A stretch of DNA of 64,000 bases from a virus. Taxonomy: Duplodnaviria; Heunggongvirae; Uroviricota; Caudoviricetes. Below the pieces are notes generated by a model that saw nothing but the letters and a program-made list of their open reading frames with translations, was not told the origin of the DNA and ran no database searches. The stretch is taken from the IMG/VR virus record IMGVR_UViG_3300031784_000007; one strand, 5' to 3'. Position numbers and translations under genes: made by a program. Numbering within the stretch: position 1 is the first letter of the stretch; each line of letters starts with the position of its first letter. This document shows positions 14,136-57,163 of the stretch, one piece after another.

Positions 14136-14140
14136 TTTCT

Positions 14141-14248: not shown

Positions 14249-14255
14249 CTAAAAG

Positions 14256-29453: not shown

Positions 29454-30485
29454 GTGTTACCTAAATTAAACAAATATCACAATGATGGACTGTTATATAA
29501 ACAGACACATCCTACATTACCGTTAACCATATGGAATTATACACCAGCGGTTCAATACGGTGAAAAGTGGGATGAAGTAACTTTACAGTGCCGTGGTTTA
29601 GTGACTGGTACTGAAGGTAATGTAGTTGCAAGACCATTTAAAAAATTCTTCAACATAGAAGAAAACAAACACACACCTACCCAAGATTTTGAGGTATTTG
29701 ATAAGATGGATGGTTCATTGGGAATCATATTCAAGTACAATGGTGAAATGATATGTGCCACTCGTGGTTCTTTTACCTCAGACCAATCAAAGTGGATGAG
29801 TGAGTTCGCTCAAAAGTACAATTACCAAGACATCATAGTTGAAGGGTTCACTTATTTGTTTGAAATCATCTACCCTGAAAATAGAATAGTTGTTAATTAT
29901 GATGGTCAAGAAAGATTGGTATTGTTAGGTATCATCAATACTGAGACAGGTGAAGAACTTCCACACAATGAGTTGTTTGAAGGGTTTGACGTTGTCAAAA
30001 AATACGATGGAGTTCGGGATTATTCCGAATTAAAGGGTAAAGTTGAGCAAAACTCTGAAGGATTTGTTGTTCGTTTTTCTAACGGAGACCGAATGAAAAT
30101 TAAAGGTGAGGAATATCTACGACTTCATAAGATAATGACAAATGTATCAACCACTGGTGTTTGGGAATTGTTATCTAATGGTGGCGACATCAATGAGTTC
30201 TTAAAGGACGTACCTGATGAATTTTATAAGAAAGTAAAAGATTATGCGGATTTATTGAAGTATGGGTTTTACCGAGTATCTGAAGATTGTGGAAAGGCAC
30301 ACTATTACTTCAGATATGGAAAATATAGTGATAAAGAAATTGAACCAACTAAAAAACAGTTCGCAGAACATGTTATGAATCATGGACATCCACCATACAG
30401 AGCGGTGATGTTCGCCATGTGGGATGGAAAACCTTATGATAAATTGATATGGAACATAATAAAACCAGAATGGAAGAAACTGTAA
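29454..30485 (+). CDS. ATP-dependent RNA ligase, T4 Rnl1-like (nucleotidyltransferase motifs I, IV, V)
   Basis: Motif I FDKMDGSLGII (compare Rnl1 KEDGSL), motif IV EGFVVRF, motif V RMKIKG; 343 aa. Confidence 0.6.
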   Translation: MLPKLNKYHNDGLLYKQTHPTLPLTIWNYTPAVQYGEKWDEVTLQCRGLVTGTEGNVVARPFKKFFNIEENKHTPTQDFEVFDKMDGSLGIIFKYNGEMICATRGSFTSDQSKWMSEFAQKYNYQDIIVEGFTYLFEIIYPENRIVVNYDGQERLVLLGIINTETGEELPHNELFEGFDVVKKYDGVRDYSELKGKVEQNSEGFVVRFSNGDRMKIKGEEYLRLHKIMTNVSTTGVWELLSNGGDINEFLKDVPDEFYKKVKDYADLLKYGFYRVSEDCGKAHYYFRYGKYSDKEIEPTKKQFAEHVMNHGHPPYRAVMFAMWDGKPYDKLIWNIIKPEWKKL

Positions 30486-33245: not shown

Positions 33246-33452
33246 TTGGTTAATATGACAAACGAAGAATGGATTGAGGAATTGTATCACCTATCTCATG
33301 AGATTGGTAAGTACAATGAAATGCATGGTAAAGTAAATGAGTGTAGAAAAAAACACCCTGACTTAAATACTGTTGAATGTGCCGAATTAGCTTATATTGA
33401 ATTAAAACGACAATACGAAGAGGAGATTGAATTAAATGAACAACCTAGATAA
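33246..33452 (+). CDS. small hypothetical protein
   Basis: 68-aa ORF overlapping the thyA start. Confidence 0.35.
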   Translation: MVNMTNEEWIEELYHLSHEIGKYNEMHGKVNECRKKHPDLNTVECAELAYIELKRQYEEEIELNEQPR

Positions 33453-34605
33453 ACAATACCAAGACCTACTCAAATCTATTTTAGATTATGGTGTAGAAAA
33501 GAAAGACCGTACAGGTACAGGAACCAAATCTATTTTTGGTTATACAATCCGTCATAAAATGAGTGATGGGTTTCCATTACTTACAACCAAGAAAATGGCT
33601 TGGAAGACAATGGTGACAGAATTACTATGGTTTTTACGAGGTGATACAAACATCAAATACCTTGTTGATAATGATTGCCATATTTGGGATGGTGATGCGT
33701 TCAAAAACTTTATGACTACAAGTGAAGGTGACCCTGACATGATATGGAACCAAGACCAATTCATTCATCTGATTAAAACTAATGATGAGTTTGCTAAGGA
33801 GTGGGGTGAGTTAGGACCAATCTATGGTAAGCAATGGAGAAGTTGGAGCCGAAATGCAACCCGTGATGAGAAAATAGTTGACCCTGGTGTTTATACAAAA
33901 CAAATAGACCAAATCCAAAACCTAATCAACGACCTTAAAACAAATCCAGACTCAAGACGACTAATGGTTTCAGCTTGGAATGTAGGAGAATTAGACCAAA
34001 TGGTTCTTCCTCCTTGTCATTATGGATTTCAAGTTTATACGAGAGAATTAAGTAAGAGTGAGAGATATGTACATTTAAGAACGGGTAAGTATTCTGGAAA
34101 ATGGGATGGAACTGGTGATGAAATGGAGTATTATAATTCAATAGGTGTTCCTAAACGAGCAATCTCTTTAATGTGGAATCAACGTTCGTGTGACGTTCCA
34201 TTAGGAATTCCAATGAATATAGCATCATATGGACTTCTTTTAATGATGATTGCGGATGAAGTTAATATGATACCTGAAGAACTAATTGGTAATTTAGGAG
34301 ATTGTCACATCTATTTGAACCAAATGGACGGTGTTAAAGAACAAATTGGTAGAGAGTTTAGTTATGAAGAAAGATTAGAGTTGATTAAAGATAATAAAGA
34401 TTTTTTAGTTAAATTATCATCTTATTCATCAAACGAAGATGTTATGAAGTTATGTGATGAATTCTTAGTCCCAAGACGTACAAGAGAACCGTTTGAATTA
34501 CCAACAGTACACGTTAGAGACGGAATCCACTGTTCATCAGTAAATGATGTTATTTTGAAAAATTATCAATCACATTCTAAGATTTATTTTCCACTTTCTA
34601 ATTAA
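33436..34605 (+). CDS. thyA: thymidylate synthase family protein (ThyA; a dUMP hydroxymethylase cannot be excluded), with insertions
   Basis: DRTGTGT, GPIYGKQWR, SAWNVGELDQMVLPPCH (catalytic Cys), RSCDVPLGIPMNIASY (Asn gives dUMP specificity), C-terminus ...KIYFPLSN; 389 aa because of three insertions. Confidence 0.85.
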   Translation: MNNLDKQYQDLLKSILDYGVEKKDRTGTGTKSIFGYTIRHKMSDGFPLLTTKKMAWKTMVTELLWFLRGDTNIKYLVDNDCHIWDGDAFKNFMTTSEGDPDMIWNQDQFIHLIKTNDEFAKEWGELGPIYGKQWRSWSRNATRDEKIVDPGVYTKQIDQIQNLINDLKTNPDSRRLMVSAWNVGELDQMVLPPCHYGFQVYTRELSKSERYVHLRTGKYSGKWDGTGDEMEYYNSIGVPKRAISLMWNQRSCDVPLGIPMNIASYGLLLMMIADEVNMIPEELIGNLGDCHIYLNQMDGVKEQIGREFSYEERLELIKDNKDFLVKLSSYSSNEDVMKLCDEFLVPRRTREPFELPTVHVRDGIHCSSVNDVILKNYQSHSKIYFPLSN

Positions 34606-34666: not shown

Positions 34667-35422
34667 ATGATTGGTATATATAGAATTAAAAATTTGGTTA
34701 ATGGTGATTGTTATTATGGTTCGTCCAAACAAATTGAAAAAAGATTGGGTAGACATAGAAGAGAATTGAAAAATAATAATCATATAAATTGTATATTACA
34801 AAGAGCATGGGATAAATACGGAGAAGATAATTTTTTATTTGAGATTGTTAAAGAATGTGATATCAGTGTCCTTCTTGAGACCGAACAAAAGTATTTGGAT
34901 TTACAACCTAAATATAACATAGGGATTAAATCAAGTGGTGGTGATAATTTGACAAAAAATCCTAACAAGAATAATATTGTTAAAAAAATGACTGAATCGG
35001 TTAAAAAAAGATATGATTTAATGACTGATGAAGAAAAAAAAGAAAAACATTCACAACCTATGGAAACAAACCCAAATTGGAAAGGCGGAACAAGTTTCAA
35101 ATATTGCGAATGTGGAGTTAAAATATCGGCAATTAACAATACCTGTATAAATTGTAGAGATAAATCAGGGATGAATAATCCTTTTTTTGGTAAACAACAT
35201 TCGGAAGAAACCAAAAAAAAATTAAGTGAAAGTAGAAAAGGAAAAAAACCAACAAATATGAAACAAGTTATAATTGATAATATTATCTATGAAAGTTTGT
35301 CGGAAGCGTCAAGACAAACAGGTATTCCGTCACCAACCATTTTATGGAGAATAAATTCCAAAAATGAAAAATACAAAAACTACAAATCACACTCATCAAT
35401 CAAAGCACCCTTATCAAATTAA
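34667..35422 (+). CDS. GIY-YIG homing endonuclease with a C-terminal tail duplicating the ThyA C-terminus
   Basis: MIGIYRIKNL...YYGSS...RLGRHRRELKNNNH (GIY-YIG core); NUMOD-like KKK/GK motifs; the last 13 aa KNYKSHSSIKAPLSN parallel the ThyA end KNYQSHSKIYFPLSN. Confidence 0.8.
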   Translation: MIGIYRIKNLVNGDCYYGSSKQIEKRLGRHRRELKNNNHINCILQRAWDKYGEDNFLFEIVKECDISVLLETEQKYLDLQPKYNIGIKSSGGDNLTKNPNKNNIVKKMTESVKKRYDLMTDEEKKEKHSQPMETNPNWKGGTSFKYCECGVKISAINNTCINCRDKSGMNNPFFGKQHSEETKKKLSESRKGKKPTNMKQVIIDNIIYESLSEASRQTGIPSPTILWRINSKNEKYKNYKSHSSIKAPLSN

Positions 35423-41711: not shown

Positions 41712-42407
41712 ATGAAAATTACGTTTATCTCTGATACCCACACCAAACACAAACAAGTGACATCAAGTCTTCCTGGTGGTGATTTGTTGATTCATGCTGG
41801 TGACCTAAGTTCAATGGGTTATAAACATGAAATCCAACAATTCTGTAAATGGTTCAATAGTATTGAAGGTTACAATCACAAGGCATTCATCGCAGGTAAT
41901 CATGATTGGGGATTTCAAAACAACAATGAGAAAATCATGGAAATTGTTAACTCTTATAAAGACATTGATTACTTACAGGATGACATGTTGATGATTGGCG
42001 AGGACTATGATAAGATGATTAAAATTTGGGGGTCTCCTTGGCAACCTGAATTCTACAATTGGGCATTCAATCTTCCACGGCAGGGTGAGGAATTGAAAGA
42101 AAAGTGGAATATGATTCCGACTGACATTGACATCTTGATTACTCACGGTCCTTCTTGGGGTAACTTGGATACTGTAAAATTTAACCCAACTTTCAATTTA
42201 GGTTGTGAGTTGTTGGCGGAAAGAATCAAAGTGGTAAAACCAAAGATTCACGTTTGTGGTCACATCCACACAGGATATGGTTACAAATTTGATGGAGATA
42301 CTCACTACTTCAATGCCGCAGTTTTGGATGAACAATATAACTTCACTCAAAAACCTTTGACCGTTGATTGGAACCCTGAAACTAATGAAATTGAATTTTT
42401 AGATTAA
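41712..42407 (+). CDS. metallophosphoesterase (calcineurin-like)
   Basis: LIHAGDLS, AGNHDW, ITHGPSWG, CGHIHTGYG. Confidence 0.65.
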   Translation: MKITFISDTHTKHKQVTSSLPGGDLLIHAGDLSSMGYKHEIQQFCKWFNSIEGYNHKAFIAGNHDWGFQNNNEKIMEIVNSYKDIDYLQDDMLMIGEDYDKMIKIWGSPWQPEFYNWAFNLPRQGEELKEKWNMIPTDIDILITHGPSWGNLDTVKFNPTFNLGCELLAERIKVVKPKIHVCGHIHTGYGYKFDGDTHYFNAAVLDEQYNFTQKPLTVDWNPETNEIEFLD

Positions 42408-45782: not shown

Positions 45783-45855
45783 GGCTCTGTGGTGTAGCGG
45801 TAACATTGCAGTCTCTAAAACTGATAGTCACGGGTTCGAACCCCGTCAGGGCCAC
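45783..45855 (+). tRNA. tRNA with anticodon CTA (amber suppressor, reads UAG), type I
   Basis: Manual cloverleaf: acceptor ggctctg/cagggcc (one GU), D gtgt-agcggta-acat, anticodon stem gcagt/actga with loop cTCTAaa (U33 and A37 present, 34-36 = CTA), variable tagtc, T arm acggg-TTCGAAC-cccgt, discriminator A. Confidence 0.6.
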
Positions 45856-46031: not shown

Positions 46032-46082
46032 CACGTAGTAGCCTAAAAAGGATACCCGAACTCACAAGGTTCGGGTTTTTTG
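46011..46082 (+). promoter_or_regulatory. attenuator-like element: segment A agttcgggt (46011-46019) can pair with B acccgaact (46054-46062); B alternatively forms terminator cccgaac/gttcggg plus T-run (46055-46082)
   Basis: Mutually exclusive 9-bp and 7-bp helices; a leader ORF ends at A. Confidence 0.4.
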
Positions 46083-46087
46083 TTTTT

Positions 46088-46114
46088 AAGTTCTTTGACA
46101 TGTTGGTAATCAAA
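46088..46114 (+). repeat. 27-nt repeated element aagttctttgacatgttggtaat(c/a)aaaaa (second copy at 50838-50864), each directly before a tRNA
   Basis: Near-identical copies; contains TTGACA, promoter-like. Confidence 0.5.
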
Positions 46115-46117
46115 AAT

Positions 46118-46190
46118 GGGACGGTAGCAAAGATGGTCAATGCACTGGACTGAAAATCCAGCCATGGTGGTTCGAGTCCACCCCGTCCCA
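46118..46190 (+). tRNA. tRNA-Phe (GAA)
   Basis: Acceptor gggacgg/ccgtccc, anticodon stem ctgga/tccag with loop cTGAAaa, T arm gtgg-TTCGAGT-ccac. Confidence 0.8.
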
Positions 46191-46198
46191 CAATACAT

Positions 46199-46272
46199 TG
46201 GTGATTAGCTCAGTTGGTTAGAGCACTACGCTGATACCGTAGGGGTCACAGGTTCAAGTCCTGTATCACCAA
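46199..46272 (+). tRNA. tRNA-Ile (GAT)
   Basis: Acceptor tggtgat/atcacca, D gctc/gagc, anticodon stem ctacg/cgtag with loop cTGATac, T arm acagg-TTCAAGT-cctgt. Confidence 0.8.
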
Positions 46273-46280
46273 CCATAAAT

Positions 46281-46351
46281 TACCCTTTCGTCTAATGGCA
46301 GGACAAGTGGTTTTGGTCCACTGAATGGAGGTTCGAGTCCTTCAGGGGTAA
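46281..46351 (+). tRNA. tRNA-Gln (TTG)
   Basis: Acceptor taccctt/aggggta, anticodon stem agtgg/ccact with loop tTTTGgt, T arm ggagg-TTCGAGT-ccttc. Confidence 0.7.
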
Positions 46352-46357
46352 CAATAT

Positions 46358-46432
46358 GACTTCGTAGCTCAATTGGTTTAGAGCACCTCACTTTTAATGA
46401 GGGGGTTTCGGGTTCGAGTCCCGACGGGGTCA
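46358..46432 (+). tRNA. tRNA-Lys (TTT)
   Basis: Acceptor gacttcg/cggggtc, anticodon stem cctca/tgagg with loop cTTTTaa, T arm tcggg-TTCGAGT-cccga. Confidence 0.8.
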
Positions 46433-46438
46433 CAACAT

Positions 46439-46511
46439 CTTTCCTTAGCTCAGTTGGAAGAGCATCTGCCTTACATGCAGAGGGTCGTTGGTTCAAATCC
46501 AACAGGAAAGA
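46439..46511 (+). tRNA. tRNA-Val (TAC)
   Basis: Acceptor ctttcct/aggaaag, anticodon stem tctgc/gcaga with loop cTTACat, T arm gttgg-TTCAAAT-ccaac. Confidence 0.8.
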
Positions 46512-46517
46512 CAAAAT

Positions 46518-46599
46518 GCCAGTATCGCATAGCGGCAATTGCACTTGACTGTAAATCAAGCCTCATTTGAGTTCGTAGGTTCGAGTCCTACTGCTGGCA
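46518..46599 (+). tRNA. tRNA-Tyr (GTA), type II
   Basis: Acceptor gccagta/tgctggc, anticodon stem cttga/tcaag with loop cTGTAaa, long variable arm cctcatttgagttc, T arm gtagg-TTCGAGT-cctac. Confidence 0.75.
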
Positions 46600-46661
46600 C
46601 AAAACTTATAATCCTCCAAAACTCGCTTTTTTTACTAGTTTTGGAGACTTATAGAATATAA

Positions 46662-46735
46662 GTCCATATGCCTGAATGGTAAAAGGGACAGTCTGCAAAA
46701 CTGTTATTCGTTGGTTCGATTCCAACTATGGACTC
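46662..46735 (+). tRNA. tRNA-Cys (GCA)
   Basis: Acceptor gtccata/tatggac, anticodon stem acagt/actgt with loop cTGCAaa, T arm gttgg-TTCGATT-ccaac. Confidence 0.75.
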
Positions 46736-46737
46736 TG

Positions 46738-46811
46738 TGACTGTAGCTCAGTTGGTTTAGAGCGTTGGTTTGTGGTACCAAAGGTCGTGGGTTCAAGCCC
46801 CATCAGTCACC
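46738..46811 (+). tRNA. tRNA-His (GTG), discriminator C, CCA encoded
   Basis: Acceptor gtgactg/cagtcac, anticodon stem ttggt/accaa with loop tTGTGgt, T arm gtggg-TTCAAGC-cccat; no encoded G-1. Confidence 0.75.
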
Positions 46812-46817
46812 CCAAAT

Positions 46818-46891
46818 GGTTCCTTAGCTCAATGGATTAGAGCGTTTCGCTACGGACGAAAAGGTTGGGGGTTCGAGTCCCTCAGGAATCA
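46818..46891 (+). tRNA. tRNA-Arg (ACG)
   Basis: Acceptor ggttcct/aggaatc, anticodon stem tttcg/cgaaa with loop cTACGga, T arm ggggg-TTCGAGT-ccctc. Confidence 0.8.
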
Positions 46892-46899
46892 CAACACAC

Positions 46900-46970
46900 A
46901 GGTCAGTAGTGAAATGGTATCATGACAGTCTCCAAAACTGTTGTTGGGGGTTCGAATCCCTCCTGGCCTG
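46900..46970 (+). tRNA. tRNA-Trp (CCA)
   Basis: Acceptor aggtcag/ctggcct, anticodon stem acagt/actgt with loop cTCCAaa, T arm ggggg-TTCGAAT-ccctc. Confidence 0.75.
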
Positions 46971-46976
46971 CAAAAT

Positions 46977-47058
46977 ACCAAAGTGGCGTAAAGGTAGCCG
47001 CGTTAGTCTTAGAAACTAATGTCCTCGGGACATGTGGGTTCGATTCCCACCTTTGGTA
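46977..47058 (+). tRNA. tRNA-Leu (TAG), type II
   Basis: Acceptor accaaag/ctttggt, anticodon stem ttagt/actaa with loop cTTAGaa, variable arm tgtcctcgggacatg, T arm gtggg-TTCGATT-cccac. Confidence 0.75.
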
Positions 47059-47063
47059 CATAT

Positions 47064-47135
47064 TCCTCGGTAGCTCAGCGGTAGAGCACTCGGCTGTTAA
47101 CCGAGCGGTCCCTGGTTCGAATCCAGGTCGGGGAG
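47064..47135 (+). tRNA. tRNA-Asn (GTT)
   Basis: Acceptor tcctcgg/tcgggga, anticodon stem ctcgg/ccgag with loop cTGTTaa, T arm cctgg-TTCGAAT-ccagg. Confidence 0.75.
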
Positions 47136-47178
47136 CAACTTTTTTTGGTAAAGTCAAATATCTGTTGTATATTTGTAT

Positions 47179-47656
47179 CATGACAACAGGATATATTTCT
47201 TCAACCGAATTTATCAAAGGTGCTAAAGAATCCGCATTGGCTAAAAGTGAGTCAGGTGATTGTGTTGTAAGAGCAATCGCATCTGCAGCTGAAATGGACT
47301 ATGATTCGGCTCATCAGTTTGTTAAACAAAAATTTAAAAGACAAAATCGTAAAGGAACTTTTGGTTTTGGTGTTACTATGAACCTAATGTCTAAAAATGG
47401 TGAAAAAATTAACGGTAAATCTGTTGAAATTATCTCTGAAGAATATAGTACCATGTTGTACTACGTTGTAGTGAAAGGGGTTAAAACCCTTAGAAGTACT
47501 ACAACGGGTTCTTTTATCAAAAAATATCCAAAAGGTACTTACGTGGTGGTTGTTAGAGGACATGCATTTACCATCAAAGATGGTGTGGTTATTGGTAACA
47601 TTGAAGATGGTAAAAAAATGAAAAAATACATTAATGGTGTTTGGAAAATTGGGTAA
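47179..47656 (+). CDS. hypothetical protein embedded in the tRNA island (possible Cys...His dyad GDCVVRAIA / RGHAFTIKDG)
   Basis: ORF-track 46922-47656 runs through five tRNAs; the real start is ATG 47179, preceded by tatatttgta. Confidence 0.45.
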
Positions 47657-47683
47657 TATGTTTTAACTTTGTATTATAATAAT

Positions 47684-47758
47684 GGTGTAGGTAGCTCAGT
47701 AGGTAGAGCAACGGTTTGAAACCCCGTGTGCCGAGTGGTTCGATTCCCTCTCACACCA
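47684..47758 (+). tRNA. tRNA-like, probable second tRNA-Phe (GAA), with imperfect acceptor and T-stem pairing
   Basis: D arm tagctcagtaggtagagca, anticodon loop tTGAAac, GGTTCGATTCC T-loop; acceptor ggtgtag/tcacacc has an A-C mismatch and the T-stem pairs poorly. Confidence 0.4.
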
Positions 47759-47974
47759 CAAAATAATTAGATGGGCGTAATGAGGGATGGTACCCGAGTC
47801 CCCAAGATTGGCGGTCACCTGTAATTGGTGGTCGTTGCGTCGTAAGGTTGTCTAATCCGTCCTGAACGGTATCCGGTTCGAGACCGGCTCTAATTATGAA
47901 AAACTAACCCAGTTTCACAATGAAGGCTGATACCTTCGGAGTGGGGGTGACGGTCAGGAGAGACTGACAACCAT

Positions 47975-48079
47975 AGTCAGGTGGCGGAATAGTAGACGCA
48001 ACGAAAGTAAAGTAAGATGGCCCAAACCTTTAAGGTGCGAATAAGCTACTTTGTGCAGGTTCAAATCCTGTCCTGACTA
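47975..48079 (+). tRNA. tRNA-like chimera E1: agtcagg acceptor plus Leu-type D arm, a 56-nt non-tRNA core, then acagg-TTCAAAT-cctgt and cctgact acceptor
   Basis: Core contains a 6-bp helix aaagta/tacttt and no 7-nt anticodon loop. Confidence 0.4.
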
Positions 48080-48122
48080 CAGAGAGTTTTATCAACGGTT
48101 CTCACTAAAAAACCAAAGAAAT

Positions 48123-48200
48123 AGTCAGGTGGCGGAATGGTTAGACGCGACCACGTGAGTGGTCAAACCGGTGTTACAGGTTCGAATCCTGTCCTGACTA
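48123..48200 (+). tRNA. tRNA-like chimera E2: same acceptor/T-arm scaffold; the anticodon arm is replaced by a GNRA-capped hairpin gaccac-GTGA-gtggtc
   Basis: 6-bp perfect stem with a 4-nt GTGA loop; no anticodon possible. Confidence 0.45.
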
Positions 48201-48274
48201 CCAAGTAGAGAGAACCGTGAGTTTGCGGATGGAAACAACCATAAAACGAGCATACGTCATACTCTACTTAAAAT

Positions 48275-48366
48275 AGTCAGGTTTGGTACAAGGTCGGTTG
48301 GATTCCGATGGAAGGTTGTGGCAACGGGTAGCTCCCTGTAGAGAGGTTCGATTCCTCTCCTGACTA
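48275..48366 (+). tRNA. tRNA-like chimera E3: same acceptor scaffold; the interior carries the T-arm-like hairpin tcgg-TTGGATT-ccga and other stems
   Basis: agtcagg ... agagg-TTCGATT-cctct cctgact. Confidence 0.4.
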
Positions 48367-48478
48367 CCGAAGATATCTGTCTAAAAGGACAGGGTTAGCA
48401 ATTTGGAAAAGTACGGAGCGGATAATATCCCTTCTGAGCGAAATCCTTAGGTTGTAGAGGCTGTGGAGCGACACCATA

Positions 48479-48486
48479 TATCTTTG
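48479..48486 (+). promoter_or_regulatory. -7 promoter box TAtcTTTG, 8 nt before tRNA E4
   Basis: TAnnTTTG. Confidence 0.4.
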
Positions 48487-48493
48487 CAAATTT

Positions 48494-48566
48494 AGTCAGG
48501 TGGCGCAATGGTGAGCGCAGGATGCTTATATCATCAAGGTTATGGGTTCGAATCCCGTCCTGACTA
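48494..48566 (+). tRNA. tRNA-Ile (TAT) candidate; canonical type I member of the agtcagg family
   Basis: D gcgc-aatggtga-gcgc, anticodon stem ggatg/catca (top pair mismatched) with loop cTTATat, T arm atggg-TTCGAAT-cccgt. Confidence 0.55.
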
Positions 48567-48581
48567 CTAATAACAGGAAAT

Positions 48582-49190
48582 ATGAAATATACACTAAATT
48601 GTTACGGATGGCAAATGGAAGCAATCGGAAAATCATTAACCGATGAGCAAGTTTCAAAAATTAAAGAGTTTATGAGCGAAAATGGGTATGAAAATTTGTG
48701 GGAAGCCCGTTTTGAATTGGACCAACTTTTAGACATTGACATTTGGGATGGTGAACTGTTTCATTTATCAAAAGCGTTTGATAACGGAGGAATGAATTTT
48801 GTTATTGAGGATGAAGAAGGGAAAGAGGTGTTAAAATTTGATATTCAAGATATGTTGGCTTTGGATGAGGTGATTGATGATTATTACACACATAATCGTC
48901 TTGAAGAGTATAACGCATTTCCAAATGAAAATGGTAACAATAACGTTCTGTTGATGGTTGATGAGAATAAAGGTGGGTTGTATTACATGAACTTTGAGTC
49001 AGATGATGTTCCAACAGTAGAAGATTTTACATTTATGACAGGTAGTATTGTAACACCTGAAGGCGATTATGATTATATTGATAAAATTTTCTTTAAAACT
49101 GTTGAGTTAGAAATTGAGGATTATTTGGATAATTCGGGGAAAGCATCAACCGTTGAATTGTTTACATCTGATGGAGGGGTAATAAACTAA
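48582..49190 (+). CDS. hypothetical acidic protein within the tRNA island
   Basis: 202-aa ORF. Confidence 0.5.
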   Translation: MKYTLNCYGWQMEAIGKSLTDEQVSKIKEFMSENGYENLWEARFELDQLLDIDIWDGELFHLSKAFDNGGMNFVIEDEEGKEVLKFDIQDMLALDEVIDDYYTHNRLEEYNAFPNENGNNNVLLMVDENKGGLYYMNFESDDVPTVEDFTFMTGSIVTPEGDYDYIDKIFFKTVELEIEDYLDNSGKASTVELFTSDGGVIN

Positions 49191-49200
49191 TTATAGTTTT

Positions 49201-49274
49201 GGCGAGGTAGCTCAATTGGTTAGAGCGTCTGTTTCATACGCAGAAGGTTAACGGTTCGATTCCGTTCCTCGCTA
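49201..49274 (+). tRNA. tRNA-Met or Ile2 (CAT), elongator type
   Basis: Acceptor ggcgagg/cctcgct, anticodon stem tctgt/gcaga with loop tTCATac, T arm aacgg-TTCGATT-ccgtt. Confidence 0.75.
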
Positions 49275-49315
49275 CAAAGTTGATTATTCAAAACAAGTTA
49301 TTTATATTTTAACAG

Positions 49316-50584
49316 ATGGAAAAATTATCAAGAGTAGGGAACCAAATCGTCGGTTCTGAGATTATCAAAATCTCACAACAAATCAAAGAAATTGCAAAAA
49401 CAAAACCTGTATCAAACTTAACCATTGGTGACTTTAGTTCCAAATTATGGCCAATACCAACAAAATTAAGTGATTACATTCAAGAAGCTTATGAACATGG
49501 TTTAACAAATTATCCAAATTCACAAGGTGAAATTGAGTTAAGGGAATCTGTTTCAAAACATATTAAACATCAATTCAATGTTGATTATTCACCTGAAGAA
49601 ATCTTAATTGGTGGTGGTGTTAGACCTTTGATTTATACAGTTTATAAATCAATGGTAAATCCGGGTGAGGGTGTTATTTATCCAACACCATCTTGGAATA
49701 ACAACCATTATTGTTTTTTACATAACGCTGAAAAACAAGAAATTGAATGTTCACCTGAAAATTCATTTTTTCCAACCGTTGAAGATGTTAAAAATAAATT
49801 GAGGGACAATACATCTTTAATTTGTATTTGTTCACCACAAAATCCAACAGGTCGTGTAATTAATTCAGAAGTTTTGAAAGGTATTTGTCAGGTAATTGTT
49901 GATGAAAACAATATCAGAAAAAATCAAGCATATACAAGACCATTGTATTTGTTCTTTGACCAAATTTATTCTGACATTACCAAAGATGGTTTATTTGTAC
50001 ACCCATTAACACTGTGTCCTGAAATTAAAGATTATTTGATTTGTGCTGACGGTATTTCAAAATCATTAAACGCAACTGGTGTTCGTGTTGGTTGGTTGTT
50101 TGGACCAAAAGATGTGATTGGGAAAATGACTGAGGTCTTGTCTCATATCGGAGCTTGGGCACCAAAACCTGAACAAACAGCATTGGCCAGATACATCAAA
50201 GAAAATCATGATGATTATTTGTCACACATTGATTATGTTACAAAAGAGTATGAATATTTATCAACCCAAATATGTGAAAAGTTTCAAGAGTTGAAGACAA
50301 AGGGTTTAGATGTTGATTATCAAAAACCTGATGGTGGAATTTATATTTCAGTTTATTTGGGTTATGTCCATTCATTTTCATCTACAGAAGAATATATTTC
50401 GTTCTTAATTAATACTTGTGGATTGGGAATTGTTCCTTTTGAATATTTTGGTTCCAAAGAAAATAAAGGATGGTTTAGAATCTCAATTGGTAACATTTCA
50501 TCATTAAATTTGGATTTTATTCTTGATACAATTGAAAAATCCGTATTAAAATCAAATAGTTTTATAAATTCTATGGTATTTTGA
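49316..50584 (+). CDS. PLP-dependent aminotransferase, class I/II fold
   Basis: ICADGISKSLNATGVRVGWLFGP (SxSK...GxRxGW lysine motif); 422 aa. Confidence 0.6.
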   Translation: MEKLSRVGNQIVGSEIIKISQQIKEIAKTKPVSNLTIGDFSSKLWPIPTKLSDYIQEAYEHGLTNYPNSQGEIELRESVSKHIKHQFNVDYSPEEILIGGGVRPLIYTVYKSMVNPGEGVIYPTPSWNNNHYCFLHNAEKQEIECSPENSFFPTVEDVKNKLRDNTSLICICSPQNPTGRVINSEVLKGICQVIVDENNIRKNQAYTRPLYLFFDQIYSDITKDGLFVHPLTLCPEIKDYLICADGISKSLNATGVRVGWLFGPKDVIGKMTEVLSHIGAWAPKPEQTALARYIKENHDDYLSHIDYVTKEYEYLSTQICEKFQELKTKGLDVDYQKPDGGIYISVYLGYVHSFSSTEEYISFLINTCGLGIVPFEYFGSKENKGWFRISIGNISSLNLDFILDTIEKSVLKSNSFINSMVF

Positions 50585-50730
50585 TTGATTTTTTCAAAAT
50601 ATTACTATATTTAATAAGAAATCAAATAATAATACATTCGATGAAAACCATATTCATATTCGGCACACCAGCAACAGAGGGTGATACTTCCAAAGTGGAG
50701 ATGGGATAATATTGTAAAAAATCTTACAAA

Positions 50731-50760
50731 AACCCATCTCAAAAGGATGGGTTTTTTTTT
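50731..50760 (+). terminator. intrinsic terminator (CCCATC / GATGGG plus 9 T residues)
   Basis: Follows the aminotransferase gene. Confidence 0.7.
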
Positions 50761-50791
50761 GGTTATGTTTGTCAATATCAAAAAAATGTAT

Positions 50792-50799
50792 TAACTTTG
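50792..50799 (+). promoter_or_regulatory. -7 promoter box TAacTTTG
   Basis: Precedes the second copy of the 27-nt element and tRNA-Glu. Confidence 0.4.
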
Positions 50800-50837
50800 T
50801 ATTGTTGTTGAAGATGACAACAGAACAAAAAAGTTCT

Positions 50838-50864
50838 TTGACATGTTGGTAATAAAAAAATTGC
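50838..50864 (+). repeat. second copy of the 27-nt element aagttctttgacatgttggtaataaaaaa
   Basis: Matches 46088-46114. Confidence 0.5.
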
Positions 50865-50931
50865 TCGGTTCGTCTATCGGTTAGGACCTCAGGTTTTCAT
50901 CCTGGTAAGAGGGGTTCGACTCCCCTACCGA
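50862..50931 (+). tRNA. tRNA-Glu (TTC)
   Basis: Acceptor gctcggt/accgagt, anticodon stem tcagg/cctgg with loop tTTTCat, T arm agggg-TTCGACT-cccct. Confidence 0.7.
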
Positions 50932-51036
50932 GTACAAAAGTTATATCCTCAGGTACCCGTACAGTGGTGAGTAGGGTTAAATTAGATACAAGTTCTCGGA
51001 ACTGGAAGTAGAATGCCTGTACGATGTAACTTAAAT

Positions 51037-51111
51037 GCCTCCGTAGCTCAGTTGGCCAGAGCTACTGATTTGTAATCAGTGGGTCGGCGGTTCGAATCCG
51101 TCCGGAGGCTC
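51037..51111 (+). tRNA. tRNA-Thr (TGT), CCA encoded
   Basis: Acceptor gcctccg/cggaggc, anticodon stem actga/tcagt with loop tTTGTaa, T arm ggcgg-TTCGAAT-ccgtc. Confidence 0.8.
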
Positions 51112-51120
51112 CAAATAAAT

Positions 51121-51276
51121 AGTCAGGTGGCGAAATGCTTATAAGCAGACATATAGTCCCCTTATAACTTGGAAGACGCTTAGTCCTATGATGGTGTATG
51201 GTTGAAAGAGCTTACCTAGGACGAATGCCGTAACTGCAGTAATCCGGCGCTACAGGTTCGAGCCCTGTCCTGACTA
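51121..51276 (+). tRNA. tRNA-like chimera E5 (156 nt): agtcagg acceptor and acagg-TTCGAGC-cctgt cctgact ends around a structured insert of about 110 nt
   Basis: Insert hairpins include gctta/taagc and gtccta/taggac. Confidence 0.4.
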
Positions 51277-51305
51277 CAAACATTCAAGAGTAATTAACTT
51301 GAATA

Positions 51306-51371
51306 GGCTAATTAGTGGAGTGGTACCACAGAGGTGATTCTCAGACGCAGGTTCGATTCCTGTATTATCCA
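51306..51371 (+). pseudogene. truncated tRNA-like element (acceptor, D and T arms present; only 17 nt between D and T arms)
   Basis: ggctaat ... gtgg-agtggta-ccac ... gcagg-TTCGATT-cctgt attatcc. Confidence 0.3.
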
Positions 51372-51372
51372 C

Positions 51373-51590
51373 AAACCTCAGGATTAATTACCCTGAGACT
51401 GGAAGGTTCGAAACTTCCGATTGGTTATGGTGTATGGGGCACGGCAGAACGTAATTGGGATGCAGGATTAAGGTTCAAATCCTTATTAATCAGCAAATGG
51501 AGGTATGGGGTGAACCCCTGACACAAAGTACAAGTGATGGTACGTACGACCTATAGGTTACCAACCTCTAAACTAATTACAACTTTTTTA
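51373..51590 (+). pseudogene. block of degenerate tRNA-like fragments and small hairpins (T-loop-like GGTTCGAAACTTCC and AAGGTTCAAATCCTT; no complete cloverleaf)
   Basis: Manual inspection only. Confidence 0.25.
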
Positions 51591-51593
51591 AAT

Positions 51594-51665
51594 AGCGGGG
51601 TAGAGCAGAGGTAGCTTGCAAGGCTCATAACCTTGAGGTCACAGGTTCGAATCCTGTCCCCGCTA
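51594..51665 (+). tRNA. tRNA-Met or Ile2 (CAT), A1-U72
   Basis: Acceptor agcgggg/ccccgct, anticodon stem caagg/ccttg with loop cTCATaa, T arm acagg-TTCGAAT-cctgt. Confidence 0.7.
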
Positions 51666-51671
51666 CCAAAT

Positions 51672-51749
51672 TGTGATACAGGTGTAACGTCGGTCTCATG
51701 AACCGAATTGGGTCGCCCCCCGTCAGAGGTTCGAGTCCTCTAATCACAA
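51672..51749 (+). pseudogene. aberrant tRNA-like (CAT anticodon loop cTCATga, no proper D arm, 18-nt variable region)
   Basis: tgtgata ... tcggt-ctcatga-accga ... agagg-TTCGAGT-cctct aatcaca. Confidence 0.3.
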
Positions 51750-51756
51750 CCAAATA

Positions 51757-51840
51757 TATGGCGAGTTGGTGTAATGGTAACATATTGGGCTCATAACCCA
51801 AAGTTCTAGGTTCGAGTCCTAGGTTCGCAACCAAGTACCA
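51757..51840 (+). pseudogene. aberrant tRNA-like with CAT anticodon arm (ttggg-cTCATaa-cccaa) and a tandemly duplicated T-arm segment ctaggttcgagtcctaggttcgcaacc
   Basis: The 3' acceptor strand does not pair with any candidate 5' strand. Confidence 0.25.
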
Positions 51841-52040
51841 CGATGATTACCGTAAGAACATCACAGTGGTAGATAGAGTTAACGTGAATAACCCAAGGCA
51901 TAAGCGTTAACAACCCCCCATAAGAATATTTGGCCAATAGAAACTGTGGGGGTTTTTAAAATCTTGTGTCTTGGTACGCTCTGACGAAAGTTAACGACAA
52001 GGTCTCGGTGGACAGAACTAGTCTGATTCCACCCAAAAAT

Positions 52041-52112
52041 GCGAGTGTCGTATAAAGGCTATTACTCCAGCCTTCCAAGCTGGAGATGGGAGTTCGATTC
52101 TCCCCACTCGCT
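52041..52112 (+). tRNA. tRNA-Gly (TCC)
   Basis: Acceptor gcgagtg/cactcgc, anticodon stem ccagc/gctgg with loop cTTCCaa, T arm gggag-TTCGATT-ctccc. Confidence 0.75.
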
Positions 52113-52321
52113 CAAAAAGAACCTTTCCTTACGGAAGTCCGATTAGCGCGGATGAAAGGAACCTTGACTTTGTGGGAGTAATTACCCAACCGAAGTTTGA
52201 ATGACTCAAGGTACTCTGTAATGGACCCTGCTCTATGGTGCACACATAACAGGTGATGGGGAACAAACCATCGGTAAAATCTAAACCTACGGTGAGCGTA
52301 GAAGGAAAGTTTCTTTTTGTT

Positions 52322-52394
52322 GCGGGAGTAGCTCAGTTGGTAGAGCACAACCTTGCCAAGGTTGGGGTCGCCGGTTCGAATCCGGTCTCCCGCT
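52322..52394 (+). tRNA. tRNA-Gly (GCC)
   Basis: Acceptor gcgggag/ctcccgc, anticodon stem caacc/ggttg with loop tTGCCaa, T arm gccgg-TTCGAAT-ccggt. Confidence 0.8.
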
Positions 52395-52463
52395 CAAATG
52401 TGAATCTTAAAAAGGGCCCTTCCGTGTTTATTACGGCTTGTTGGGCCCGGATTTACTAACTAC

Positions 52464-52535
52464 GGTCCTGTAGTTAATCGGCTATAATATTGCCCTGTCA
52501 CGGCAAAGTGCCGGGTTCGATTCCCGGTGGGACCG
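52464..52535 (+). tRNA. tRNA-Asp (GTC)
   Basis: Acceptor ggtcctg/tgggacc (two GU pairs), anticodon stem ttgcc/ggcaa with loop cTGTCac, T arm ccggg-TTCGATT-cccgg. Confidence 0.7.
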
Positions 52536-52544
52536 CAAAAATAA

Positions 52545-52618
52545 GGGCTGTTAGCTCAGTTGGCTAGAGCACCTGCCTTGCACGCAGGGGGTCGACGGTT
52601 CGAATCCGTCACGGTCCA
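52545..52618 (+). tRNA. tRNA-Ala (TGC) with the G3-U70 identity pair
   Basis: Acceptor gggctgt/acggtcc, anticodon stem cctgc/gcagg with loop cTTGCac, T arm gacgg-TTCGAAT-ccgtc. Confidence 0.8.
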
Positions 52619-52627
52619 CAAAAAAAT

Positions 52628-52703
52628 AGCGTAGTAGAGGAGTCAGGTTTATCTCATCTGCTTTGGGAGCAGAGGCACGCTGGTTCGAATCCAGTCTACG
52701 CTA
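52628..52703 (+). tRNA. tRNA-Pro (TGG)
   Basis: Acceptor agcgtag/ctacgct, anticodon stem tctgc/gcaga with loop tTTGGga, T arm gctgg-TTCGAAT-ccagt; D loop unusually long. Confidence 0.65.
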
Positions 52704-52738
52704 CAATTATTTTTTATTATCAACGTGTATTTATAGTT

Positions 52739-55264: not shown

Positions 55265-57163
55265 ATGCAAATGAAAAAAATTCTTTTATCATTAACGCTG
55301 GTTTGCGCTTCGCTGGTGAGTTACGCGCAAACATGTCCGACACCGTCCACGACGGCTGCTCACGTGACATTAGATTCAACTTACCAAACAGGTACCTATA
55401 GGTCTGGAAAAACAAACATAGGATTGTGTTGGTACAACAACACCTCAACAAACATTACGGCAACACAGTTTAGAGTATTCTACGATAAAACTGCGTTTGC
55501 TAAGGTTGATACTGTTACTTCGTTGAATACGTCGTTCTCACAGTATCTTCAGTATGTGGACAACCCAACAGGTGGATATGTAACAATTACTTTAACTTAC
55601 ACAGGTAATAATAGTAGTTTTACATTACCGAATGGTAAAATGTTCCAAGTTACTTTGAAACATTCATCAGTACTTGCAACAACATACTTTACCCCTACCG
55701 ATATGACATTTGGTGGAACCCCAACTTTTCCTCAGTTATCTACAACTCAGGCAGGTGCCGACTATGCGTTGACACTTAAAAACTTTGGTGGTGTTTTCAA
55801 ACCTCAGGTTATGTCATTTAAGGGTAAGTTTGTAAACGTTACTGGTACACCTTCAAAAAACTTGACAGTATCATTAGAGAAGAAACTTAAAACTTCTTCA
55901 ACATGGTCATATGTTCAAGATACCTTTACTAATAGTTTAGGTAAATTCTTCTTCACAGATGTTGCAATTGATACAACTGTTTGGGATGTAAGAATTGCAG
56001 TTAAAGGTGATACTATGGGTGTTGGAGCAATTGTTTCTACATCAGATGCACAAAGAATCAACCAATATGTATTGGGAACTCAGTCTATGACTGGTTTTGA
56101 TTACTATTCATCTGACGTAAACGGAGACAATTCAGTTTCAATCTCTGACGTTTATGGTGTTTACGCAAGAGTATCAGGTAGATTTACAACTTGGTCAAAT
56201 AGTGTTAAAGATGTTAAATTCTTTACAGTTTCTGAATACGACACTATTAACGGTTCGAGTAAAAACTACACAAGTACAATTGCGGGTGTAACAAACTTCA
56301 CATACCAAATCATCGCAGGTCAACCTGACTCTGTAACTTATTATGTTGTGTGTCCTGGTGATGCTAACGGAACAGGTTACAACAGAGCTCGTTTAACACC
56401 AATTCAAATTGTTAATCCAAACAATGCTAACAAACACATCATTGATGTAACTACAGCATATGATAACATTTTGGAAACTATTGAAGTTAACTACCCTAAA
56501 TTGGGTGTAGATGCTGGTGACGTGGTTAGAATTCCTGTAAAATTAAAAACAGGTGGTATTAACTTAGGTTCATTACAGATTTGTATGAAATACGATTCTA
56601 CTCTTTTAACTTTTAAAGGTGTAAAAAATGAAATGAAAACTTCTTATTGGATTTCTTTCATCAATACATCAAACAACATGGTTGAATGGGGTGGATATGA
56701 CCCATCTAATAACCAACACTTGGTTAACGATGGTGATTTGTTTTTTACATTAGAATTTGAATCTAAAAAACCACAGAACGAGTGGGGAAAAAGTCCATTG
56801 TATGTTCAAAGAAAATTTGCAGGTAACCCATTGGCAACTGATTTAAACATCACACCAACTGACGGAATCATTCAAGTTTTCAGAATGGGTGGTACAACAA
56901 ACAATTTCAAAGATATGATTTTATATCCTAACCCATTTGAGGGTGATGTAACAATTGGTTTTAAAATCTACAAAGAAGGTAAAAACATAATTGGTATTTA
57001 TGATATAAACGGAAAACAACAAATGGAAATTGTTGCAAACGAAACTAAAATTGGAATTTATTCAAACACAGTTGATTTGAGTTTTTTACCTCCAGGAACT
57101 TACTTGGCGGTTTTAAGAAACGAAGAAAAAACAACAACAAAAAAAGCAGTTAAAACTAAATAA
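55265..57163 (+). CDS. secreted protein with T9SS type-A C-terminal sorting domain (Por secretion CTD)
   Basis: Signal peptide; dockerin-like DVNGDNSVSISDVYGVY; C-terminus LYPNPFEGDVTIGF...IYDINGKQ...LPPGTYLAVL matches the type-A CTD. Confidence 0.75.
   Translation: MQMKKILLSLTLVCASLVSYAQTCPTPSTTAAHVTLDSTYQTGTYRSGKTNIGLCWYNNTSTNITATQFRVFYDKTAFAKVDTVTSLNTSFSQYLQYVDNPTGGYVTITLTYTGNNSSFTLPNGKMFQVTLKHSSVLATTYFTPTDMTFGGTPTFPQLSTTQAGADYALTLKNFGGVFKPQVMSFKGKFVNVTGTPSKNLTVSLEKKLKTSSTWSYVQDTFTNSLGKFFFTDVAIDTTVWDVRIAVKGDTMGVGAIVSTSDAQRINQYVLGTQSMTGFDYYSSDVNGDNSVSISDVYGVYARVSGRFTTWSNSVKDVKFFTVSEYDTINGSSKNYTSTIAGVTNFTYQIIAGQPDSVTYYVVCPGDANGTGYNRARLTPIQIVNPNNANKHIIDVTTAYDNILETIEVNYPKLGVDAGDVVRIPVKLKTGGINLGSLQICMKYDSTLLTFKGVKNEMKTSYWISFINTSNNMVEWGGYDPSNNQHLVNDGDLFFTLEFESKKPQNEWGKSPLYVQRKFAGNPLATDLNITPTDGIIQVFRMGGTTNNFKDMILYPNPFEGDVTIGFKIYKEGKNIIGIYDINGKQQMEIVANETKIGIYSNTVDLSFLPPGTYLAVLRNEEKTTTKKAVKTK

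Follow-up and report, generated by a model that had tools for sequence, protein, structure and literature searches.

Transfer-messenger RNA (tmRNA) is matured by the enzymes that process tRNAs and is charged by a synthetase that ignores the anticodon. In the engineered tRNA scaffold reportedly introduced by Ponchon and Dardel in 2007, the RNA of interest replaces the anticodon arm for recombinant expression, while the YrlA RNAs are said to have their ends at the anticodon side, in a circularly different topology, and to bind Ro60/Rsr. In phages, tRNA-like non-coding RNAs have been known since T4, whose tRNA region encodes the small non-tRNA RNAs C and D, the function of which is still unknown (PMC9697503). 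Here we describe five tRNA-like elements, E1 to E5, encoded in a 64,000-nt stretch of DNA from the Caudoviricetes record IMGVR_UViG_3300031784_000007 of IMG/VR, which is hereafter called the window, belongs to a large phage genome and contains 32 tRNA calls by ARAGORN, a tmRNA and a freshwater-1 RNA.

A previous sequence-only reading of the window had taken these loci for tRNA-like chimeras built on a common chassis, all of them except E4 unable to decode; this core of the proposal was upheld and strengthened in the current study, and the elements lie within tRNA arrays. Considering what was observed, namely the anatomy of the elements and the spread of their family, their covariation, the geometry of their promoters and an exchange of modules at two sites, the explanation that we favor, with a probability of roughly 0.6, is that E1 to E5 are members of a large family of non-decoding RNAs on a tRNA chassis that carry exchangeable payload modules. 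New relative to the earlier proposal are the very large size of the family and its presence in many phages, the cassette-like exchange of its inserts and the occurrence of many members as stand-alone genes.

Anatomy of the five elements

The elements have the following positions in the window:

47975–48079, + strand: E1, with an AGUCAGG acceptor, a tRNA-Leu-type D arm (GCGGAAUAGUAGACGC), the T arm GCAGG-UUCAAAU-CCUGU and A73
48123–48200, + strand: E2, the minimal member, with a complete tRNA-Leu-like body and an 11-nt variable region
48275–48366, + strand: E3, a five-helix member that begins agtcagg-tt-tgg and has no tRNA-type D arm
48494–48566, + strand: E4, a decoding chimera, namely a tRNA(UAU) of canonical cloverleaf shape that has the AGUCAGG body
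51121–51276, + strand: E5, with two modules, a D-loop hairpin and a long arm (AGUCCUA.../...UAGGAC) at the anticodon position

All five loci were found at the coordinates proposed by the sequence-only reading. The 9-mer CCTGACTAC has five exact occurrences in the window, solely at the 3' ends of E1 to E5, 0.00 occurrences of the gapped pattern AGTCAGG...CCTGACT are expected there by chance, and no open reading frames (ORFs) of at least 50 amino acids were found to overlap the elements. Every one of them has an acceptor stem of 7 bp, a discriminator base and a T arm whose loop matches TTCRA. The scaffold had been described as identical in both the acceptor and the T arm, with the common start agtcagg-tg-gcg; the identity holds for the acceptor stem AGUCAGG/CCUGACU and the A73-C74 tail, whereas the T arms of E1, E3 (agagg-ttcgatt-cctct), E4 (atggg-ttcgaat-cccgt) and E5 (T loop ttcgagc) differ from that of E2, and E3 departs from the common start. 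The canonical tRNAs of the window each have a different acceptor stem, and share their flanks (U-1 and N73-C-AAAA) with the scaffolded elements.

Using ARAGORN and the Rfam tRNA model (RF00005, gathering threshold of 29 bits), E4 is the sole normal tRNA of the five (tRNA-Ile with anticodon UAU, 62.5 bits), as had been predicted, and it alone has a 5-bp anticodon stem with a 7-nt loop. E2 yielded a defective call (42.6 bits in Rfam; "tRNA-???" with a 2-nt anticodon in ARAGORN), and its anticodon arm has a loop of 4 nt, being, exactly as described, a perfect 6-bp helix capped by a GNRA tetraloop (GACCAC-GUGA-GUGGUC); the fold of this element has a z score of -2.1. E1, E3 and E5 are without such an arm, received no ARAGORN call and gave no Rfam report even at E <= 1. 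The inserts that had been assigned to these three elements are present, although E5 has two insertions rather than one, the additional one being located in the D loop. The insert of E1, of about 55 nt, replaces the anticodon and variable arms, while E5 retains a variable-arm hairpin (GCCG/CGGC). Besides its acceptor and T arm, E3 has three helices: an internal hairpin that resembles a T arm (GUCGG-UUGGAUU-CCGAU), a small hairpin that covaries and the hairpin GGG-UAGCU-CCC.

Relatives were found elsewhere for every one of E1 to E5 (L numbers designate the loci concerned). The insert type of E1 also occurs in L287 (7940–8077), where the D loop bears an additional hairpin and the T stem covaries, and relatives of E2 occur in four jumbo-phage contigs (L283 to L286), in which the GNRA loop (GUAA) and the variable region are kept. 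E4 has relatives in L065 and L285, and E5 has an identical copy in L288 and a diverged relative in L016 and L289, where the variable arm covaries (ACGG/CCGU).

A large family on one scaffold

The sequence-only reading had suggested searching for the scaffold in related phages to look for covariation, and such a search was made here. IMG/VR was scanned with the 3' half of the scaffold and, separately, with its 5' half, each scan returning at least 120 loci; pooled, they gave at least 252 unique elements. Covariation was found, among others, in sub-family S1 and in the type of E3. More than 250 uncultured, mostly freshwater viral contigs carry the scaffold. The consensus of the 5' part is AGUCAGG-UG-GCGGAAU(U)GGUAGACGC, followed by the variable part, and that of the 3' part is U48-(A/G)CAGG-UUCGAAU-CCUGU-CCUGACU-A73-C74. 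Among the matches listed, CCTGACT forms the 3' strand in 220 of the 252 unique elements, and conservation is high at U8 (96%), A14 and A15 (90%), U48 (82%), A73 (90%), C74 (96%) and U(-1) (80%); CCA is not encoded, position 75 being C in only 5% of the elements. Among these same matches there are up to 8 copies per genome, and no tRNA can be called for 136 of 174 elements; the calls obtained for the others are equaled in number by controls with shuffled inserts. The D arm of the scaffold equals that of the phage's own tRNA-Leu(UAA).

Scans keyed on the insert rather than on the acceptor recovered AGUCAGG in 25 of the 33 unique members of S1, and the replacements in L235 (AACAGAG/CUCUGUU) and L238 (GGAGAGA/UCUCUUC) are both fully paired. 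For the E3 type, the corresponding scan gave AGUCAGG in 11 of 14 members, GGUCAGG in 2 and GGUUAGC/CCUAAUC in 1. These swaps of the acceptor with pairing kept indicate that the acceptor stem is an RNA helix under selection, for which one sequence is strongly, not absolutely, preferred.

A scan of 185,579 species genomes returned 26 matches, nearly all of them freshwater contigs of metagenome-assembled genomes (MAGs) that carry the same non-decoding elements and are often binned as Bacteroidota, and an origin of the scaffold from host tRNAs was therefore rejected. The sole isolate-genome match to the 3' half of the scaffold is a tRNA-like fragment on a contig of a Hymenobacter montanus isolate (L199, 6800–6890), whose 5' strand does not pair with CCTGACT and which an integrated element may have left behind as a junction. 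The scaffold was absent from cultured phages in a scan of 50,697 phage records. Rfam scans of the window (gathering thresholds), of its 45.5–53 kb region (E-value cutoff) and of 20 element-rich loci gave only weak matches of the tRNA model on the elements, and the 34–45 bits scored by elements at other loci are owed to the scaffold alone. No description of the scaffold was found in the searchable literature using sequence strings and several vocabularies, and a protein search with the ORF at 48582–49187, as another route to relatives, found none.

Conserved structure of the inserts

Among the matches listed, the segment between the D arm and U48 measures 20–196 nt (median of 56 nt), and 188 of 251 unique elements are without an insert relative in the pool. 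Identity between the inserts of different sub-families is 39%, the level of shuffled sequences, whereas the scaffold is about 90% identical. Inserts fold better than their dinucleotide shuffles (mean z = -0.70, p = 2e-14), are enriched in internal T-arm-like hairpins (5 of 149 versus 0.46 expected) and have GNRA sequences in 16 of 59 tetraloops.

In the S1 sub-family (25 sequences), the fold consists of an 8-bp stem at the position of the anticodon stem, an inner hairpin and conserved unpaired stretches; 97.5% of its cells are paired, and compensatory double changes affect 20 of the 27 pairs, compared with 7.3 +/- 1.8 after shuffling (0 of 500 shuffles) and at most 8 in slid registers. The E3 type, found in 27 viral contigs as 14 unique sequences, has a nearly invariant insert and fits the five-helix fold with 97.9% of its cells paired. 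Unpaired insert nucleotides are conserved in both types. Within a type, the insert is a conserved structured RNA under selection at the RNA level. Of the roles that the sequence-only reading had considered, that of structured small RNAs on a tRNA chassis fits best, given that inserts are individually conserved and covary, while that of decoys for anticodon nucleases appears unlikely, since most members have no anticodon loop. A role as decoys for aminoacyl-tRNA synthetases is conceivable, the conserved positions coinciding with those that the leucyl-tRNA synthetase of E. coli recognizes.

Exchange of modules and elements

Comparison with L285, a close syntenic relative with 83–96% nucleotide identity over window positions 46055–52707, showed that the term chimera is literal for E4. 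Positions 26–48 of E4, comprising A26, the anticodon stem-loop and the variable loop, equal those of the tRNA-Ile(UAU) of L285 (8916–8990) in 23 of 23 nt, while the acceptor, D and T arms all differ, which indicates that E4 is an anticodon branch mounted on the AGUCAGG body. L285 itself has one E2-type element, preceded by the flank that in the window precedes E1, and is without X1 (a further tRNA-like element described below), E1, E3, the block containing E5 and the freshwater-1 RNA, a layout expected from unequal recombination among repeats of the scaffold. Five scaffolded elements are also found in L014, another close relative; these are of other types and occupy other slots of a syntenic array.

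Two groups of closely related small phages have one element each at an orthologous locus, with constant promoter, flanks and scaffold and with unrelated inserts. In group 1, the versions of the element measure 159, 109, 96, 92, 132, 89 and 116–118 nt; across 45 pairs the flanks are 84–96% identical, and the identity of the inserts is either 92% or higher or that of random sequence. Insert type is uncoupled from flank similarity. In L290, the main module of E5 recurs with 1 nt different, next to another D-loop hairpin and within a compensated acceptor (AGUCAAG/CUUGACU); this difference from E5 implies that the scaffold has two independently variable sites. Moreover, the same insert type occurs in unrelated flank contexts (at least 23 for S1 and at least 10 for the E3 type), and L263 harbors a copy of E3 identical to that of the window over 97 nt in dissimilar surroundings.

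Expression context and host

Within 2 kb of the elements, all 369 of 369 tRNAs lie on the strand of the element. No canonical tRNA occurs in 57 of 121 sequences, and many elements are thus stand-alone genes. The box TAnnTTTG was found upstream of 53 elements on the sense strand compared with 23 in the antisense control, and in 16 elements, from two phage groups, it ends exactly 4 nt before A1. Given that TAnnTTTG, the sigma-A -7 box of Bacteroidota, occupies positions -12 to -5 in Flavobacterium, counted from the start (PMC9723704), transcription is predicted to start at A1, the mature 5' end, which suggests that in many members RNase P is not always required. The signals found in the window are:

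47663–47675, + strand: promoter-like TTAACTTTGTATT, which contains TAnnTTTG, upstream of the array segment holding E1 to E4
48479–48486, + strand: TATCTTTG, a -7 box with its end 7 nt ahead of A1 of E4
50728–50756, + strand: intrinsic terminator-like hairpin and T run, between the two copies of TTAACTTTGTATT
50791–50803, + strand: second exact copy of promoter-like TTAACTTTGTATT, 72 nt upstream of tRNA-Glu, heading the segment that holds E5

The 13-mer TTAACTTTGTATT has just these two exact sites in the window, each heading an array segment, and the unit ended by the terminator comprises E1 to E4, the ORF at 48582–49190, tRNA-Met and an aminotransferase.

In the small phages, the element often heads the packaging genes, being located directly upstream of terL in group 2 and beside terS in another group. 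In L104 of group 2 (element at 7262–7356), it lies between its own promoter and terL, and the ATG follows 3 nt after the A73-C74-A tail; 3' processing of the tRNA-like RNA would there leave an essentially leaderless terL mRNA. In L139 of the same group (410–490), the terL ATG is found 33 nt after the element.

Regarding the host, the window encodes at 55265–57160 (+ strand) a protein with a type IX secretion system (T9SS) C-terminal sorting domain (Por_Secre_tail), a hallmark of Bacteroidota and an unusual phage cargo; together with the taxonomy of the MAG bins, it indicates a Bacteroidota host.

Proposed mechanism

Under the favored explanation, the constant body, made of AGUCAGG/CCUGACU, U8, a Leu-type D arm (A14, A15, G18G19, A20a), U48, the T arm and A73-C74, would fold into a tRNA elbow and acceptor end and make the transcript a substrate for tRNA maturation. 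For transcripts with a leader, RNase P would act first; trimming of the 3' end and addition of CCA would follow, the latter being proposed because CCA is not encoded. A structured module would stand in for the anticodon arm, and some members would have one in the D loop as well; as the module replaces the anticodon arm, these RNAs would not decode, except for rare members, such as E4, with a real anticodon branch. Each module type would be a structured RNA in its own right and the part that bears the specificity, while the two scaffold halves, of about 25 nt each, could serve as homology handles for the swapping, duplication and deletion of modules or entire elements, whether inside one phage genome or from one genome to another.

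A payload is favored because unpaired insert nucleotides are conserved within a type and because the types act as discrete alleles and not as drifting spacers. We infer that this payload has a variable binding partner. A set of discrete, unrelated alleles at the same locus of nearly identical phages is what conflict interfaces typically show, and on account of such alleles we conjecture that the partner is a factor of host defense or of a competitor phage. More tentatively, and with the odds rather against it, the elements might constitute an RNA cassette-exchange system, in which the body acts as chassis, as a possible handle for leucyl-tRNA synthetase (LeuRS) and as recombination handles, and by which freshwater Bacteroidota phages trade anti-defense or anti-rival payloads under diversifying selection. 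If so, this system would be an RNA counterpart of anti-defense gene cassettes, with two independent insertion sites on its scaffold, and could also provide true anticodon branches with a new body, as in E4.

Several points weigh against the payload explanation. Maturation as a tRNA and stability from the tRNA fold are what we infer from the anatomy. Both broad queries held one acceptor strand fixed, hence the scaffold and acceptor statistics are partly ascertained, and the acceptor-independent scans keyed on insert sequence covered two types only, S1 and E3. A pure chassis role leaves the strong preference for one acceptor sequence unexplained, as the phage's own tRNAs use many others, and the constant body is not uniform, given that E3 and some other types miss the D arm. 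On the side of the payload, no motif common to all inserts was found, a few short words recurring, and no known RNA family matched the inserts in the Rfam scans. No dedicated protein partner emerged when 2,038 ORFs within 4 kb of the elements at 179 loci were clustered; the best cluster was the terminase, in only 23 of the 179 loci. Finally, the elements abutting the start of terL in some small phages could mean a role in cis instead.

Alternative explanations

Among the alternatives, the least improbable, although we consider it unlikely, centers on the body: the elements would be leucylatable, non-decoding mimics of tRNA-Leu, acting as leucine donors for a non-ribosomal transferase or titrating LeuRS, EF-Tu or another binder of the tRNA body, and the inserts would need only to fold and avoid decoding. 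E. coli LeuRS needs A73, A15-U48, G18G19/A20a, U8:A14 and contacts of the D and T loops, and it dispenses with the anticodon and variable arms, since a minimal tRNA-Leu without both is still charged (PMC9976931). The conserved positions of the scaffold match this set and its variable parts are the arms that LeuRS can spare; the D arm is that of the window's tRNA-Leu(UAA), and the multiple copies per genome, up to 8 among the matches listed, would raise the dosage. By the E. coli rules, which may not hold for the LeuRS of Bacteroidota, the set is complete in 167 of 252 elements among the matches listed and in E1, E2, E4 and E5, so that E1, E2 and E5 may be leucylatable, while E3, missing the D arm, would not qualify. 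E3-type and GCGUAAUGAGG-type elements are nonetheless conserved without a D arm, the invariance of the acceptor stem is not a known LeuRS requirement, and mimicry of the body does not account for inserts that are conserved within a type down to unpaired nucleotides and that form discrete alleles without drift. The two explanations are compatible and do not exclude each other. Less probable still is a function in cis, with the tRNA-like body as punctuation or a 5'-untranslated element for downstream genes such as terL and the insert as incidental. The placement of the group-2 element between its own promoter and terL, with the ATG as close as 3 nt in L104 and 33 nt in L139, the elements beside terS and the location of E1 to E4 in one predicted transcription unit with two ORFs are consistent with it, and Bacteroidota have no Shine-Dalgarno sequences, for which reason leader structure matters (PMC9723704). 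However, discrete, conserved and covarying insert types and D-loop modules would remain unexplained, as would tandem copies in tRNA arrays whose canonical tRNAs already supply processing sites.

We regard as improbable, a little more so than a function in cis, that the elements are immunity or antisense RNAs of the kind of C4 of phages P1 and P7, in which variable loops, presented by a tRNA-like frame that stays constant, would base-pair with mRNAs of the phage or its host and so determine immunity or the choice of target. C4 offers a precedent, being a phage RNA processed by RNase P in which loops a' and b' set the target and heteroimmunity specificity (PMC5320573), and the way in which related phages differ at one locus, by discrete alleles, recalls a polymorphism of the immunity type; on the other hand, the inserts have no excess complementarity to the 64-kb window, complementarity to the element's own 6-kb locus equals that to unrelated loci (9.54 versus 9.49 nt, p = 0.72), and no C4 match appeared in the Rfam scans. 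Decaying tRNA pseudogenes, or selfish elements with terminal inverted repeats similar to miniature inverted-repeat transposable elements (MITEs), in either case without RNA function, are very improbable. It is true that TAGTCAGG...CCTGACTA forms an 8-bp terminal inverted repeat, that close relatives differ by the gain or loss of elements as whole units and that the same element recurs in unrelated contexts, but compensatory changes occur in every helix, T stem and insert stems included, the tRNA tertiary positions and the T loop are conserved, the orientation is always that of neighboring tRNAs, promoters are placed precisely for A1, and no target-site duplication was evident when filled and empty sites were compared. 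Finally, the inserts might be spliced out as introns to yield ordinary tRNAs, an outcome that the sequence-only reading had itself named as its refutation. They do lie at the usual site of tRNA introns, and the phage encodes a T4-type RNA ligase; yet no anticodon stem halves flank them, the arm of E2 is a closed 6-bp helix with a tetraloop, lengths of 20–196 nt are too short for group I introns, and no intron family was matched in the Rfam scans. The intron mode of ARAGORN made no call for E1, E3 and E5, and in the pool it gave 185 calls, with motley anticodons, compared with 148–165 when the inserts were shuffled. We find introns the hardest of all these alternatives to credit.

Other features of the window

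Three further tRNA-like elements with other acceptor stems accompany E1 to E5:

47766–47897, + strand: X1, tRNA-like, acceptor AUUAGA/UCUAAU, absent from L285
51306–51372, + strand: X2, short tRNA-like element with another acceptor stem and a truncated anticodon region, 46.5 bits with the Rfam tRNA model
51669–51750, + strand: X5, tRNA-like, with acceptor UGUGAUU/AAUCACA and a T arm, without anticodon arm, 27.1 bits with the Rfam tRNA model (below threshold)

The insert type of X1 (GGGCGUAAUGAGG...) occurs elsewhere on the AGUCAGG scaffold. Two more segments that are tRNA-like or bear a T arm, with other acceptors, lie at 51373–51432 and 51433–51500 (+ strand) and recur in 8 and 5 other loci, respectively. 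The spacers that separate the tRNA-like genes of the arrays are themselves conserved hairpin RNAs: that at 47898–47974 (+ strand) is 92% identical in L283 to L286, that at 48201–48274 (+ strand) is 98.5% identical in L258, and that at 50936–51036 (+ strand) occurs in 12 loci and in L285 follows an E2-type element instead of tRNA-Glu. The arrays thus look like islands of many different small structured RNAs. Additionally, the first gene after the promoter motif, at 47684–47759 (+ strand), resembles tRNA-Phe(GAA), scores 41.6 bits compared with 69 for the tRNA-Phe at 46118 and has a conserved counterpart in L285; it, too, may be a non-standard tRNA.

A freshwater-1 match in Rfam (52217–52279, + strand, 62 nt) lies between two tRNA-Gly genes and within a block of about 200 nt (52114–52321) that is 71–80% conserved in L014, L051, L203, L266 and L273 and wholly missing from L285; considering the conservation of this whole block, the functional RNA may exceed the Rfam model. 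The tmRNA encoded by the phage (12343–12735, + strand) matches the full-length Rfam model with 53.6 bits (threshold of 47) and is separate from E1 to E5. A tRNA with the anticodon CUA, of the amber-suppressor type (45783–45855, + strand; "Pyl" in ARAGORN, 60.9 bits in Rfam), has its own short unit, with a copy of the promoter motif with one mismatch at 45595 and a terminator at 46054–46076, and could indicate recoding of TAG in part of the phage genome. The isolated tRNA-Leu(UAA) (14163–14249, + strand), whose D arm matches that of the scaffold, has its own TAnnTTTG-like box at 14140 and is immediately preceded by an HNH endonuclease gene (13581–14132, + strand).

The window also encodes an RNA ligase of the T4 RnlA type (29454–30482, + strand), two calcineurin-like phosphoesterases (22046–22693 and 41712–42404, + strand) and an ORF with a nucleotidyltransferase fold (5428–6180, - strand), which searches of Pfam, NCBIfam and PDB sequences did not identify as a CCA-adding enzyme. 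These proteins could form a toolkit for tRNA repair and end healing, in which case host defenses that target tRNAs would matter for this phage. Besides, the thymidylate synthase ORF (33436–34602, + strand; 389 amino acids) is longer than the Pfam model, its match being spread over residues 6–320, and after it comes the gene of an I-TevI-type homing endonuclease of the GIY-YIG class (34667–35419, + strand), an arrangement reminiscent of the td intron and endonuclease of T4.

Comparison with known systems

A family of hundreds of RNAs with a constant body, discrete exchangeable modules and precisely placed promoters makes the long-standing problem of the tRNA-like non-coding RNAs of phages testable. 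If the modules are determinants of anti-defense or immunity, they would represent a new RNA layer in the conflict between phages and hosts and a natural precedent for the engineered tRNA scaffold. Besides, no Rfam model covers the family, and tRNA finders miss its members or assign them spurious anticodons, in both plain and intron modes, which affects censuses of phage tRNAs and the inferences on codon usage drawn from them.

The T4 RNAs C and D (species 1 and 2) are, like the scaffold family, small non-tRNA RNAs encoded with phage tRNA genes, but they are two single genes, for which no common tRNA body with exchangeable inserts has been described; no T4-like phages with the scaffold were found among the 50,697 phage records, rnaC and rnaD having been compared through the scaffold query only. 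With tmRNA, the family shares a tRNA-like domain of acceptor and T arm and a large insert that replaces the anticodon arm. However, tmRNA has the G3:U70 pair for AlaRS, pseudoknots, a tag reading frame and no D stem, whereas in the scaffold family the 3-70 pair is U-A, the D arm is of the Leu type and the inserts, of 20–196 nt, comprise hundreds of unrelated types; neither Rfam nor ARAGORN called a tmRNA at E1 to E5. YrlA, too, is non-coding, contains a tRNA-like domain and is found in phages as well as close to tRNAs, and it differs from the scaffolded elements in that their termini form the acceptor stem; in the 45.5–53 kb region of the window, Rfam matches to YrlA (RF02553) reached 21–24 bits, compared with a threshold of 69 bits, and fell only on canonical tRNAs.

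The C4 RNA of P1 and P7 has in common with the family a constant frame with variable specificity loops and alleles in related phages (PMC5320573), but it is not a cloverleaf with a T loop and an acceptor end, and its targets are nearby and complementary. Minimal tRNA-Leu substrates share A73, A15-U48, G18G19/A20a and the core of the D and T loops with the scaffold (PMC9976931); these are in vitro constructs, and the acceptor sequence of the phage elements differs from those of known tRNA-Leu, the phage's own included. The engineered tRNA scaffold follows the same principle, in that the body is kept for processing and protection and a structured RNA is placed at the anticodon stem, but it is a laboratory tool, whereas the phage family is natural, widespread and cassette-exchanging and has a second insertion site in the D loop. 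Judged by the features that define tmRNA, C4, YrlA and tRNA genes with introns, the family belongs to none of these classes, and most of its members do not have the anticodon arm of a tRNA. A single scaffold across hundreds of phages, bearing hundreds of unrelated conserved modules that are exchanged in the manner of cassettes, appears to be new.

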